Of a DNA stretch of 64,000 bases, positions 33,001 to 39,000 are shown piece after piece. Source of the DNA: Candidatus Micrarchaeota archaeon (GTDB lineage: Archaea; Micrarchaeota; Micrarchaeia; Anstonellales; Bilamarchaeaceae). Position 1 is the first letter of the stretch. Each line of letters opens with the position of its first letter. The position numbers were made by a program. The DNA lies in the NCBI GenBank assembly GCA_038046805.1, contig JBBSVO010000006.1, positions 196,452 to 260,451 of the forward strand, given 5' to 3'.

Positions 33001-36000
33001 CCGCGGTGCAATCCCTAAAATGTGATTCAATAATATTTGAAGGGGAGGCGTTGGCATATGAGGAGACCGGAACTGGAAAATCATTAAAAAAGAACTATCT
33101 TTCTTTTCAGGAAACGATCCAGCGAAAGCGAAAGCACGGTATTTCAGATGCAGCAAAAGCATTCCCGCTTAATTTGTTTTCTTTTGACATACTTTATCTT
33201 GACGGAAAGGACCTTACAACAGAACCATATGAAAAACGCAGGAAAATTCTTGAAAAAATATTTCCGAGCGGAAAAAATTTGAAACTAAGCGAAAGAAAAA
33301 TCATCAAATCAACAAGCGCATTGGAAAAATTATTCCGTGAATCGATGGATTCCGGGCTTGAAGGAATAATGGCAAAGGATCCAAATGCCCAATACGCCGC
33401 CGGAAAGCGCAAATTCGCCTGGATAAAGCTGAAAAAATCCTATGGTAAGGCTGTGGATACAATTGACGTGGTTATTGTTGGTTACTATCTTGGAAAAGGT
33501 GCTCGTGTGGAGTTTGAATTCGGCGGTCTTCTCGCAGCCGTGCAGAATACCGAAAGCGGAAAGCTCGAAACCGTGGCTAAAATAGGAGGTGGTTTCTCAG
33601 AAGACGAACTGCGCCAGTTTAAGGAAATGCTTGAAAAAATCCAGACAAAATCCCCACCAAAAGATTTGGAATTCAACGATGCACAGAAGCCGGATTACTG
33701 GGTTGTTCCAAAGCATGTGGCCGAAGTTGCGTTTGATGAAATTACGCAATCGCCTACGCATACGTGCGGAATGAAAACTAGTAAAGAAGGGGGTGCAAAA
33801 GGACCTTCAACTTCGCAGAAGTTGGAGGGGCAGAGAACGAAGTTCTCTGGATATGCACTGAGATTCCCGCGTCTGCTCGTTCTCAGAGAGGATAAAAGCG
33901 TGAAGGAAATAACCACGAGCGAAGAAGTTGAGTCGCTTTATTACAAGCAGAGAAAATGAGAAATACGGATATTCAATCAGTTTTCTTCAGGGCTTTCGTG
34001 CGGCTCTCCAAATATAAAGAAATCACATTAACCATAATCAATGCAATTGAAATCGCCGTAACCCCGTTCATACGAAAAACTTCGTTGGTTTGATATATTT
34101 ACACTAATTTCAACCCTTTCACAAACTCAAAATCCTTTCTATTTTTTGTGAAAAGGAATGCGTTGTTTTCAATACACGTTGCCGCAGTAATGACATTATC
34201 CACTGAAAATTCCTTCCCTCGGTCTCTTGCCTCGTCTATTATTCTCGCAGCAGTCTCTGCGGTTTTTCTTCCAAAATCAAGAATGCTTATGTTATTTATG
34301 AAAGCAGAAAGAGCCTCCCCGTTTTTTACTCCAACCATAATCTGAAAAAGCGAATTTGAGGTCATACATATCTCTTCCCTGTCTGCGTAATACTGTATTT
34401 TTTTAACGATTGTTTTGTCCCCGCGCAGGAAATCAACAATAACGTCCGTATCAAGGCAGATTTTTTCCATATGCTCAACTATTTCCTTTAGATTTTATTT
34501 CCTTTAGATTTGCTATTTGTTCCTCTTCATCCTTTCAATTACGCGCGTATCAATATCCAATTCGCTTATGCTGCCTGCAAATACCAATATGTTCCGTTTT
34601 TCTTCTCTTTCTTTAACCAGATATCTAAGCACTTCGCTAAAGCTCATTCCCTTTGCTCGTTTGATTCGGTATAATTCCGCGTACACATCGTCCATTATCG
34701 TGATAACTCTGACCATATTTCTCAGTAAATGTATTTACTAAATGTATTTAAAAGTTTACCTCTTAGACCTTGTTTCTGTGAAGTATGCTTAACAAGCATG
34801 GTTTAACTTCATCGTCGTAAAGATGCATGTTTTTAAATAACTCTTTTTACGAGATAGATACCAGACTTTCACTCCCGTAAGGCGCACATGTGTCTACAGG
34901 AGGTAAAAATGCTGGCGACCAGAAAAAAGGTGTATAACTATGGAAGACTTGGTAAAATCCGTTATGGGCGAAACTGTAGCTCCCTCTACGAGCGATGATG
35001 GAAGCTCCGAAACAATTAGAATTGTTACAATCGGAGTTGGTGGTGCTGGAAACAATACTGTAAACAGACTCATAAAATCAGGAGTAAAAGGTACAGAGCT
35101 TGTTGCAGTAAACACAGACAAGCAGCACTTGAATATTGTCCATGAAAGGGCAAGAAAGGTTTTGATCGGCCGATCAGTTACAAAAGGACTTGGTGCAGGT
35201 GGTTATCCGGAAGTCGGTGAAAAATCTGCAGAAGTTGACAGGCCATTGCTTGAAAAAGAGCTTGAAGGTGCTCACCTTGCATTTGTTTGCGCAGGTATGG
35301 GTGGTGGTACTGGTGGTGGTGCTGCCCCAGTTGTTGCACAGGTTGCAAAAGAGCAAGGCGCAATTGTAGTTGCTATGGTTACCTACCCATTTGCTCTCGA
35401 AAGAGCAAGAAAAAAGAAAGCAGAAGAGGGTATCCAGAAATTGAAGAAATTCTGCGACTCGGTAATTATTCTCGACAACAACAGATTGGTTCAGATGTTC
35501 CCGAACCTGCCAATGACAGAAGCATTTGCAGTTGCAGATGAAATCCTTGCAAGGGCAATCAGCGGTCTTGTATGGACGATTACCCAACCATCTTTGATTA
35601 ACATTGACTTTGCAGATGTTCGCTCAATTATGCAGGGCGGCGGAGTCGGATTTATTGCAGTTGGCGAAGGAAAAGGCACAGACAAGGTTCGCTCAGCATC
35701 CGAAGGTGTCATAAAGAACAGGTTGCTTGACGTTGACTTTGAAGGTGCAAAAGGTGCATTAATCCACATCTCTGGCGGTGCAGATCTTACACTTGGTGAC
35801 GCAATAAAAGCCGGTGAAATGATCACAGAGAAAATGGATGCAGAGGCTAACGTAAAATGGGGCGCAAGAATAATGCAGAATTACGACGGTAAATTGGAAA
35901 TTGTCGCAATAGTTACCGGAGTAAAAGGAGCGAGCATTGTCGGCGGCTCAACTGACGAAGAGCCAGCATCTATGGGTGCATTCAGCTCTGACCTGGAAAT

Positions 36001-39000
36001 TCTCGGATAAATTTTTATCCGGAATTTCTTTCTTCTTTTTTCTTATTATTTTCTCTCCTTTTCTTCGTTTTTATTCCGCTTTTTTATGATGTTGTTTTTC
36101 CGCTTTGTTTAATCTCTTTAAAAATTCTTTTGCGCACATATTCTTGTTATGAGCAGAGTTACGGTACCTCCATTTACCAAGGTAAGCCGGACTGGCAGTA
36201 AACAGACTCCCGATGTTACGTCCGACCAGTCCGGAACCAAACCTCATTCATGTTGGGCAAAATTCTGGGGACTTTTTAATCGGGAGTTGTCGCAGTCCAA
36301 TATCCGTTCATTGGTTTTGAGCGGAGACGCTGATGGTTTGGAAAGACTGATTGAAAAATATAGATGTGATTCCGGAGAGCTTGATACGATAAATACTACT
36401 TTATGGAATTTATTGAATCTAAAAGGTCGTATTCCTTCCCAGAATGAAAGAGCTATCATAAACAGGGCCAGAGATGTCATACGAAAAATTCAGGAACTGG
36501 GAACATATTCGAGCGGTTAAAATTTCAAATTACAAAACTGGGAACAAAGAAGATAAATTGGGCCCGTTGTGATTTGAACACAAGACCTTTCGATTTCTAT
36601 TGCATTTGTGCGATATCAGTCGAACGCTCCAACCGGATTGCTCGTCCCTTCGGACTTTTTCTGCCTCAGGACTTTTCCGCTGGAGCGCTTTTGTCCTTTG
36701 GCTTCTGAAGTCAAAAGGGCCCTGAGCTACGGGCCCGCCAATACTAACTGTTTAATTGCATTACTTATTCTGCCTTGTAACAAAGTAAGTCGCAAGGAGC
36801 ACGATTCCCACCATCGAAAGGGAGAAAACTACTTCTTCTATCATGTGAATATTTGTATCCATTCCCTTTTTTAAAGTGTGTCCCGACACTTTCCACAATT
36901 TGCGAATAAACAATAACTATATAAACTTATATACTATATAAATACATAGGTGATACGAATGCAAAAATCAATTCAAGAAATAATACATTATCCAAGGCTT
37001 GATACGGTTATAATGGTAGAAGAAGCTATCAAAAAAGCAAGGGAATACCCGACAAAAGCGGCGCTTCTAAGAAGTCTTAAGAAGAAAGTAATGTATCAAA
37101 CTTTTCTTGTCATACTGGGTTATTTGGAAGAATCAAATAAAATACATGTAGATAAACGGGATGGTCGGGTCGTGTGGATATGGAATCCCAAGGGCGTGGA
37201 TGATATTCTCTCTTGCAATCTGGTGGCAAGATGATAAAAGAAAACATGGTCGGATTTGCAGACGAGAAAATAAAACGGGCATTTCTTGATCTTAATCAGG
37301 GAAAAGGTGCAGAGCAGCAATTATGCGAGTTTCTGAATCGCGCATTTGATGACCTTAAATTTAATCCGTTCTGCGGAATAAAAATCCCAAAAACGCTCTG
37401 GCCAAAGGAGTATGTTCGAAAATATTCAATTGATAATCTTTGGAAGTACGATCTTCCTGATGGCTGGAGATTGGTTTATACAATACGTGCCAATCAGGTA
37501 ACTATTCTTACGGTGGTCCTAGAATGGTTTGATCATAAAGAGTACGAACGGAGATTCAACTACTAGAACCGCGTGAGCAAATGATTTTAATCGGTTGCCT
37601 ACCAATTCTTTATCGTGAAAATCGCTATTATTTCTGATACTCATTTGGGTTATGCCCGTTTTGAGGATGATGCAGCCGAGCAGGCAGAATCAGCATTTCT
37701 TGATGCAGCAAAAAAAGCAGATCTTATTCTTTACGCCGGAGATGTTTTTGACGTGAAAGTCCCGCGTTTGGAAACAATGAGGCACGCGGTTGACATGCTC
37801 AGGAAAGCAGGCGCGTCCAGAGTTCCAATCTACGCAATCCACGGAAACCACGAAAGAAGAAGCAAGGACATGGTTAATCCTGTTCAGCTCTTGGCGACTG
37901 TTGGGGTTCTCAATTACCTGCACGCAAGCGGAACAATTTTTGAAAAAAATAATGAAAGGATTTTCATTTTCGGGATGGGGAGCGTGCCAGAGGATTTAGC
38001 CGCAACTGCATTGAAGACCGCGGTAGGGCGGGTTGAAGTGCCGAGTGGAATGCTTAGAATTCTTATGCTTCACCAGACTATAAAGGATTTTTCGCTTGGG
38101 GGAGAGGACGATCTCACGATGGATGAAATTTCAGGCCTACCTTTTGACTTAATTGTGAACGGACACATCCACAAGACGATAATTAATAACGAAGAAAATA
38201 TGTTAATCCCGGGAAGTACTGTCATCACCCAGCTTAAGGAGGATGAAACTGCCCCGCGCGGGTACATACTTTATGATACCTCTTCCAAAAAACCAGAATT
38301 TGTTGAAATCCCGCACCGAAAGTTTCTTTACGCGGAATTGAAATTCTCTTCTGCGAGTATGGTTGAAGTGCGAAATGTAGTAATTGAGAAGCTTGCGGAA
38401 CTGAAAAAATTGGCAGATGGGGCGAAAAAACAACCAATAATTCGCATAAAACTTTCTGGAACTCTTAAGGAAGGAATCCGTCCATCAGATTTATTCATCT
38501 CAGCAGATGGGGCATTTATAGATAATCAGTTGAACCGTAACGATGCGGGGATGAAACTTTCTCTTCCTTCCACTCCATCCGGAAGAACCGGAACAGTAAC
38601 TGAAATAGCAATTTCTCTTCTGCGGAATAAAATCGGGGACAAAATGAAGCTGCTGGATCCAGCAATACTTTTTGATAAAGTTTCTGGCGATGTTGAATCT
38701 GCAGCGGAATATGTAAACTCAGCCGGTAATTCTCAATAATGCATCTGCAAACTCCTTTGCATTTGCAGCGCTTTTCAAAGAAACATCCGAGAAATGGGTT
38801 CTCATGGTTTTGAATCCAAGTGAATTCAATTCTTCAATTATCTTGCTCATTTTCGGAACGCTCTTCATGGAAATTCTTCTGCACATCCTGTGAACATTGT
38901 AATATCCAGGTGGCATTTCAATTTCTCCTTCAATCAGTGCCAGAATTTTTTCTATCTCTTCAATATCCTCATAATCTTTTTTTCCGTTGAGTTTTCGCAT

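Follow-up and report, generated by a model that had tools for sequence, protein, structure and literature searches.

In VapBC toxin-antitoxin modules, VapC strengthens the binding of VapB to its operator, as described in two publications (PMC3378870, PMC13488343). In archaea, ftsZ2 is commonly paired with the ribbon-helix-helix (RHH) regulator CdrS, which is reported to be absent from DPANN in PMC7439475 and PMC9871819. According to PMC7439475 and PMC8406309, CdrS and ftsZ2 are transcribed together; CdrS lacks a PIN partner and binds 18 sites, most of them at 41-110 nt to the start site (PMC8406309). Our literature search, for which subscription papers were mostly beyond reach, found nothing on VapB together with ftsZ in Micrarchaeota, on cell division in Anstonellales, on inactive archaeal VapBC modules as transcriptional regulators in cell division, or on PF02697 antitoxins.

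In this work we analysed a window of 64,000 nucleotides from a Candidatus Micrarchaeota archaeon (contig JBBSVO010000006.1, positions 196,452 to 260,451), in which a VapBC-like pair lies beside an ftsZ gene. We consider it moderately likely that this pair forms a domesticated, self-repressing RHH/pseudo-PIN complex regulating the transcription of ftsZ2; from the comparisons below we infer the complex, its binding to DNA and its effect on ftsZ.

The VapB-like gene (34513-34716, minus strand) encodes 67 amino acids and matches PF02697 with an E value of 3e-13. At the inspected loci the PIN gene lies directly downstream of it in the same operon, as in VapBC; in the window it occupies 34099-34470 on the minus strand (PF01850, E 5e-7), and its product of 123 amino acids has the VapC fold. 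The ftsZ paralogue A (34940-36010, plus strand), which scores above the TIGR00065 cut-off, is separated from the VapB-like gene by 223 nt. The Pfam and TIGR00065 matches confirmed the coordinates and families given in the initial annotation, and its count of three ftsZ genes in the genome was correct. Paralogue A matches the PDB 'FtsZ homolog 1' with 275 bits, against 385 bits for paralogue C, which precedes genes that look secE- and nusG/spt5-like from their sequences. By exclusion, as it is not the FtsZ1-like paralogue, A appears from its sequence to be of the FtsZ2 type. In an FtsZ A tree from a quick search, readable for topology only since its root is unreliable, all other families were set apart together by a branch with a support of 90.

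The VapB-FtsZ neighbourhood, previously taken from ready-made tables as recurring across the order, holds on inspected loci: it was found at 30/30 best-scoring loci and at 88/94 in the wider set, and the FtsZ concerned in the relatives was paralogue A every time. The six exceptions comprise four genomes of one genus in which the pair has moved and two loci cut by contig ends. The linkage is therefore genuine, but the orthologous pair is limited to two families of the Anstonellales, designated f1 and f5. The PIN profile at E<=1e-22 was matched in 70/75 cases in f1, 14/17 in f5 and 0/30 in f2; outside f1 and f5 it gave just three weak matches among 401 genomes of the phylum, each an intact VapC whose retrieved region contained no ftsZ. 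The VapB matches in f2 were considered as CdrS-like orthologues and rejected; they belong to a separate pair with its own PIN-like partner, and ftsZ was absent near them at 15/15 loci. In three genomes (G078, G157 and G162) neither the pair nor ftsZ A is present, most simply because the locus is unassembled. Pattern scans of metagenomes for further relocated loci gave 0 matches.

The pair is divergent from ftsZ at all 88 linked loci, and the outer flanks are shuffled: by crude ORF calls, the gene beyond PIN belongs to 39 families in 83 loci and that beyond ftsZ to 42 families in 78 loci. With about one copy per genome (VapB matches in 93/98 genomes of f1 and 15/19 of f5), the pair is vertically kept, and not patchy or mobile as VapBC modules are. 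A branch with 98% support separates the PIN orthologues from 23 control VapCs, their pairwise identity follows that of FtsZ (Spearman 0.82), and dN/dS values of 0.02-0.07 in the 13 closest PIN pairs indicate purifying selection. Copy number and selection thus support the earlier proposal of a domesticated module, and its tie to one FtsZ paralogue is also upheld; the toxin mechanism attached to it was not supported, as discussed below.

The VapB-like protein has a probable N-terminal ribbon-helix-helix DNA-binding domain, and its alignment showed, at the C-terminus, the xAGS motif belonging to the toxin-binding tail. Its RHH_1 match was below the cut-off (E 0.019) and comparison with AvtR gave an E value of 0.13; the matches agree with an RHH domain, though no single one was significant. 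With Foldseek, its model superposed on CopG with an rmsd of 1.1-1.3 Å over 38-40 residues, but with E>0.2. Prediction of a 2:2 VapB-PIN complex scored 0.55, versus 0.01 for the best control, with 86% agreement of contacts and a partner pLDDT of 68; this lends weak support to the complex, as passes at <=0.60 came from 18/157 solved complexes and from both passing mismatches (2/215). Likeness to solved VapBC structures may account for this result.

A putative operator was located between the divergent genes at 34726-34750 (no strand assigned). It consists of two palindromic half-sites with the core ATRYAT and 13 bp between them. For the vapB-PIN operon, a TATA box predicted from the sequence (34745-34752, minus strand) corresponds to columns that are invariant or nearly so in the profile; the palindrome covers this box, its right half-site overlapping it. 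The predicted TATA box of ftsZ (34831-34838, plus strand) is 80 bp from the operator end, and the first TATA-like box on the ftsZ side lies 76-84 bp from the operator in 81/87 loci. The distance from the operator to the vapB ATG is variable (1-212). This fixed operator-TATA spacing could also reflect two promoters packed back to back. A weight matrix trained on part of the loci scored gave 37 bits for the operator in the window genome, the next-best site reaching 16.3, and no second strong operator was found in this genome. Scores exceeded 20 in 89/94 loci, the misses being the four moved pairs and one misplaced start where the site is present. The exact core pattern occurred in 91/98 genomes of f1 and 2/42 of f2, against 12/176 for a reversed control. 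The core-pattern matches inspected, those in G141-G143, G147, G157, G170 and G171, lay elsewhere than at ftsZ A; further ones occur in G168 and G172 and as extra f1 copies. A search upstream of ftsZ B and ftsZ1 gave no operator; the regulon thus seems to consist of a single promoter, unlike that of CdrS.

The ftsZ A promoter contains further conserved elements (CGnCG, TGT and AGTGG). The profile places CGnCGnAAA at 34813-34822 on the plus strand, 18-9 bp 5' of the ftsZ TATA box; by eye, it precedes ftsZ A in families without the pair as well, and is therefore probably an older element. The sole RNA run listed contained 0.17 of the words and yielded short low-depth contigs only.

The genus with the moved pair (g34) is informative on the role of the operator. 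There the pair has entered another operon with no operator (scores <=8.9 over 8 kb), and the operator is retained before ftsZ A in three of four genomes (G144, 33.4; G145, 30.9; G146, 34.8). The distance to the TATA box is 101-103 bp, about two helical turns longer, with the AGTGG element still 61-63 bp from the box. In G145 and G146 the gene upstream runs in the same direction, which leaves the operator no divergent promoter to serve; in G144, whose locus depends on a 32-nt overlap of two contigs, a divergent gene lies behind it. This relocation is probably a single evolutionary event in one genus. It bears on the idea that the operator is purely autoregulatory and that the pair, kept for an unrelated function, stays beside ftsZ by inheritance or through back-to-back promoter constraint. 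Such a scheme would fit an operator that covers the vapB TATA box as in ordinary toxin-antitoxin operators, its single copy (75 of the 91 f1 genomes with a core-pattern match have one), the non-independence of related genomes, and G147 of g34, which has the pair and no recognisable operator before ftsZ A (score -8.7). We nevertheless regard it as unlikely, since in three g34 genomes the operator stayed at ftsZ and is missing at the moved pair, and since the outer flanks are shuffled. A functional tie to ftsZ A is supported, and it looks transcriptional.

The PIN protein seems from its sequence not to be a normal toxin, the RNase acids being gone in most orthologues. Its model (pLDDT 95.5) has a TM score of 0.89 to 3ZVK and 5ECD (rmsd 1.9-2.1 Å). 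Aligned to VapC structures in the PDB, the window PIN keeps D7; its Q43 and N92 align with E42 and D98 of Shigella VapC, and it is about eight residues shorter beyond helix 3. The same asparagine is named in the title of PDB entry 5ECD (mutant D98N). The strict D/E/D triad was found in 2/95 orthologues versus 19/20 ordinary VapCs of the same order, and three acids by a lenient count in 13/95, mostly from deep-branching genera, versus 20/20. An ESM Atlas search with this PIN returned generic PIN clusters only. The initial annotation had proposed a toxin switch halting division, a claim left unsupported by these losses. That model, in which PIN would retain conditional toxin or RNase activity, perhaps at a modified site, and stop division once released, can draw on the retention of D7 (89/95), the lenient three-acid cases, the intact fold and the retained antitoxin tail motif. 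It is improbable in view of the low retention of E43 (37/95) and D92 (5/95), against 20/20 and 19/20 in control VapCs, of the T-x-N motif, which varies too, of the asparagine found as in 5ECD, and of the helix-H4 carboxylate, described as central to catalysis in PMC5499597.

If the palindrome were instead bound by some other cell-cycle factor that controls ftsZ and the pair jointly, this would explain why the operator remained at ftsZ after the pair had left, and the additional elements show that more factors act on this promoter. We judge this highly improbable, because the operator was found only in lineages having the pair (none before ftsZ A in 32/32 genomes of pair-less families, nor in the pair-less G161) and resembles the purine/pyrimidine palindromes seen by eye at the TATA boxes of other PF02697 pairs. 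A protein-level link, with FtsZ or the divisome as the target of the pseudo-PIN and a shared control region that does no more than co-ordinate expression, might accommodate K24 and Y28, newly invariant in the PIN clade (95/95 each; controls 7/20 and 0/20), and a haloarchaeal precedent in which a PIN without toxicity shares its operon with a division protein (PMC13488343), but it leaves the operator's staying with ftsZ unexplained and has very little probability in our view.

Under the favoured reading of a domesticated regulatory complex, a VapBC module would have been domesticated in the ancestor of the two Anstonellales families, its PIN losing the RNase site and persisting in a structural role. 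The double palindrome would be bound by the RHH antitoxin, probably in two dimers that the pseudo-PIN joins; repression of the pair's own promoter is proposed because the operator covers the vapB TATA box. The complex would also regulate the divergent ftsZ2 (paralogue A) promoter from about 80 bp, always from the same side of the helix. Repression is somewhat less likely than activation or tuning because the operator lies far upstream of the ftsZ TATA box. Where ftsZ genes A and B stand in tandem, control may extend to both. The K24/Y28 surface is a candidate contact for an input signal, and the complex may fill the role of CdrS. A bolder version, possible although we rather doubt it, is that the complex became a dedicated two-subunit ftsZ2 activator in DPANN archaea, replacing CdrS, the dead PIN serving as scaffold and sensing signals via a newly arisen conserved surface. 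Expression of ftsZ2 would then be timed by the antitoxin:PIN ratio (conditional cooperativity), with action from 80-100 bp depending on helical phase and occurring also in trans.

If true, a toxin-antitoxin origin would be an unusual route to cell-division control, and the locus a clear case of such a module taking over core housekeeping regulation, one of its subunits being a pseudo-enzyme. It provides a named candidate ftsZ2 regulator for DPANN, where CdrS is reported missing, along with a 25-bp site, a constant promoter geometry and a relocation experiment performed by nature; two small proteins and 250 bp of DNA would be enough to test them all.

Compared with known systems, the locus shares with VapBC (Salmonella and Shigella VapBC, Rickettsia VapBC2, FitAB, archaeal PF02697 antitoxins and Natrinema VapBC1) the antitoxin-then-PIN operon, the VapC fold and a two-site palindromic operator over its own promoter. 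It differs in that the catalytic acids are mostly gone, that it is inherited vertically at about one copy per genome, and that its operator is spaced to a divergent ftsZ promoter and stays there when the pair moves. The non-toxic, toxin-antitoxin-derived MtvTA and Natrinema NJ7G_2730, the latter beside a PRC-barrel division gene, also have other suggested regulatory roles (PMC13488343); they belong to other families, no operator before ftsZ is described for them, and NJ7G_2730, unlike the present pair, retains its active-site residues and has a PRC-barrel partner. With CdrS/CdrL of Halobacterium and Haloferax it has in common a small gene, here for a probable RHH protein, beside an ftsZ gene that is here probably of the FtsZ2 type, and a symmetric DNA site upstream of the division gene. 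Here, however, the gene is divergent instead of lying co-transcribed just before ftsZ2, belongs to PF02697 and is accompanied by a pseudo-PIN, with roughly one site in each genome, and CdrS sites mostly lie nearer than this operator, which is 80-100 bp ahead of the ftsZ TATA box.

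The PIN gene (window positions 34099-34470, minus strand, Pfam PF01850) and the VapB-like gene (34513-34716, minus strand, PF02697) are divergent from an ftsZ gene, paralogue A (34940-36010, plus strand, Tubulin/FtsZ_C), with an intergenic gap of 223 nt between vapB and ftsZ. Sequence and Pfam searches confirmed these coordinates, families and gap as given in the initial annotation, as well as the presence of three ftsZ genes in the genome. Paralogue C matches the PDB 'FtsZ homolog 1' with 385 bits, versus 275 bits for A and B, and is followed by genes that we take to be secE- and nusG/spt5-like. 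Since C, unlike A and B, matches FtsZ homolog 1 best, ftsZ A is by exclusion a putative FtsZ2-type gene, a class assigned from paralogue scores and context. In deep-branching genomes of families f1 and f5, ftsZ B lies directly after A on the same strand (loci L046-L048, L062-L064 and L066-L068; G161:C2:42625-44673), and in the genome of the window it is 124 kb distant. This tandem possibly represents two FtsZ2-type genes that arose by tandem duplication. Also in the window, a 94-aa gene with a RelE/ParE-like gene (36950-37566, plus strand, Pfam below cut-off) has a 67%/76% identical copy at G000:C11:5007-5611, a few kb from ftsZ1; the pair looks ordinary, with copies near two different ftsZ genes. 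A GGAGG motif (34899) ahead of an ATG (34909) opens a short ORF (34899-34998, plus strand) that runs into the beginning of ftsZ in another frame; it was noticed in no sequence but the window and a relative of the same genus.

The pair had been described as kept next to ftsZ across the order Anstonellales. The linkage held, with the junction present in 30/30 top loci and 88/94 of a wider set, and the paralogue in the inspected loci of relatives was A every time; the order-wide extent did not hold, as the arrangement occurs in f1 and f5 only. Across the order the VapB query found a match in 123 of 176 genomes (93/98 in f1, 15/19 in f5 and 14/42 in f2), with none in the nine small families. The f2 matches cover the N-terminus only and have another PIN-like partner, and no ftsZ was found near them (0/15 loci). 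With at least 105 bits, the PIN profile detected 70/75 genomes in f1, 14/17 in f5 and 0/30 in f2; outside f1 and f5 it gave three matches of 80-85 bits among 401 genomes of the phylum, all intact VapCs with no ftsZ within the fetched stretch. Because FtsZ A is widespread (155/176 genomes, almost every family) and the pair is found in f1 and f5 alone, the link belongs to two families and not to the order. The outer flanks, by contrast, vary from locus to locus: the next gene beyond PIN belongs to 39 families in 83 loci and that beyond ftsZ to 42 in 78, counts inflated by crude ORF calls. In a tree, a 98% branch separates the 32 PINs sampled from 23 control VapCs. The vapB-PIN-ftsZ A arrangement is real and lineage-restricted. 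The f5 genome G161 (94% complete) has neither pair nor operator, and its FtsZ A (L087) has a long branch (0.87 versus a median of 0.16). In family f7 a conserved helical ORF of 72 aa (L089; L090:2073-2291, minus strand) is divergent from ftsZ A, where vapB would be.

Two palindromic half-sites 13 bp apart were present in all 49 intergenic regions first inspected. In the window this predicted operator (34726-34750) overlaps the predicted vapB TATA box and scores 37 bits, the next-best site of the genome scoring 16.3. Its exact core pattern was found in 91/98 f1, 16/19 f5 and 2/42 f2 genomes (reversed control 12/176), in a single copy in 75 of the 91; two f5 and five small-family core matches were inspected, none of them at ftsZ A. 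A search upstream of ftsZ B and ftsZ1 revealed no operator. The operator lies 1-212 from the vapB ATG and 110-248 from the ftsZ ATG, and its end is 76-84 bp from the first TATA-like box towards ftsZ in 81/87 loci. In G124 the stretch separating vapB from the operator contains an incomplete tandem copy of the 5' end of vapB (L231:1312-1446). An operator serving autoregulation solely, in keeping with its place at the vapB TATA box, appears unlikely in view of genus g34 (G144-G147). There the pair has moved to another place, probably in a single event, with a presumably replication-factor-C-like gene ahead of it and no operator within 8 kb (scores ≤8.9). The operator still precedes ftsZ A in G145 (30.9), G146 (34.8) and G144 (33.4, in a sequence joined from two contigs that overlap by 32 nt), as the sole 0-1-mismatch site of each genome. 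It lies 103, 101 and 101-103 bp, respectively, from the TATA box, about 21 bp (two helical turns) longer than elsewhere, and an AGTGG element lies 61-63 bp from that box in both arrangements. The gene upstream of ftsZ A is co-oriented with it in G145 and G146. G147 is an exception, with the pair present and no recognisable ftsZ A site (-8.7). Two metagenome scans yielded no further relocated pairs.

The PIN protein is predicted to have a VapC fold (pLDDT 95.5; TM 0.89 to 3ZVK and 5ECD), where Q and N take the places of E42 and D98 in Shigella VapC; by sequence it matches best a PDB entry titled D98N mutant. The S1 aspartate and a helix-H4 carboxylate are described as central to PIN catalysis in a review of the domain (PMC5499597). 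Of 95 orthologues, 89 retain D7, 37 retain E43 and 5 retain D92. By the strict count 2 of them have the whole triad and by the lenient one 13, versus 19/20 and 20/20 ordinary VapCs of the same order. The segment past helix 3 has 21 residues in 92/95 orthologues and 28-31 in 19/20 controls, and K24 and Y28 occur in 95/95 orthologues each (controls 7/20 and 0/20). The gene is not decaying: the 13 closest pairs give dN/dS values of 0.02-0.07. These values, the lost catalytic acids and the non-patchy distribution bear out the proposed domestication of the pair. The toxin switch on FtsZ that had also been proposed is not borne out on present evidence; leftover activity is possible in deep-branching orthologues with three acids, and an active PIN toxin is on the whole improbable.

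Promoters of ftsZ A carry several more motifs, placed relative to the TATA box: CGnCGnAAA (-18 to -9, many families), TGT (-54), TG (-32), AGTGG (about -62, f5) and TGTGCAAT (f6-f9), with GGCGAC/T in the leader. Judged from sequence, these extra conserved elements point to other factors acting there. Scanned with the ftsZ promoter matrix, the genome has its best match (27 bits) ahead of a 67-aa ORF (L234:2871-3074, contig C1) ending in a zinc-finger-like CxxC...CxxC motif; a second match, at C4:47579, has no clear gene downstream. That a different factor occupies the operator itself is quite improbable. In families without the pair no operator was found before ftsZ A (0/32 regions, scores ≤6.5), and similar alternating purine/pyrimidine palindromes, seen by eye at the own TATA box of other PF02697 pairs, indicate that the operator is typical of the PF02697 family.

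The N-terminus of the VapB-like protein is predicted to resemble CopG (rmsd 1.1-1.3 Å, E>0.2). A predicted 2:2 VapB-PIN complex was weakly supported, scoring 0.55 versus 0.01 for the best control, with 86% contact agreement and a partner pLDDT of 68; passes that low were seen in 18/157 solved complexes and in both passing mismatches (2/215), and likeness to solved VapBC may explain the score. PIN and VapB identity follow FtsZ identity (Spearman 0.82 and 0.77; 600 non-independent pairs). A role at the protein level, set beside the operator retained before ftsZ A, has very little probability.

We consider it rather likely that a domesticated complex of this kind binds the double site, represses itself and regulates the ftsZ2 A promoter. 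In its simplest form, RHH dimers, bridged by the catalytically dead PIN, would bind the double site; the bound complex would repress the vapB-PIN promoter and regulate that of ftsZ2 A from a constant position on the helix. The toxin of ordinary VapBC systems is reported to strengthen operator binding (PMC3378870), which gives a reason for keeping a dead PIN. Archaeal activators are described as usually binding upstream of promoters (PMC8406309), so that by analogy activation of ftsZ2 A would be somewhat favoured, but the distance is long. Where ftsZ B directly follows A in deep lineages, it may share this control.

The pair is built in VapBC fashion but fails two defining tests, the active site and the patchy distribution, and is therefore not classed as a working toxin-antitoxin system; TA-like modules without toxicity and with other roles have been noted (PMC13488343). 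Our literature search on VapB/ftsZ in Micrarchaeota, inactive VapBC regulators and PF02697 antitoxins, which covered few subscription journals, returned nothing relevant. CdrS, an RHH regulator of ftsZ2, is reported from all clades but DPANN (PMC7439475), and an RHH_1 gene is described as usual in ftsZ2 contexts (PMC9871819); a PF01402 search of the present genome gave a single match, on another contig stretch. By analogy the pair may work like CdrS, but here vapB is divergent, has a PIN partner and has about one site per genome.
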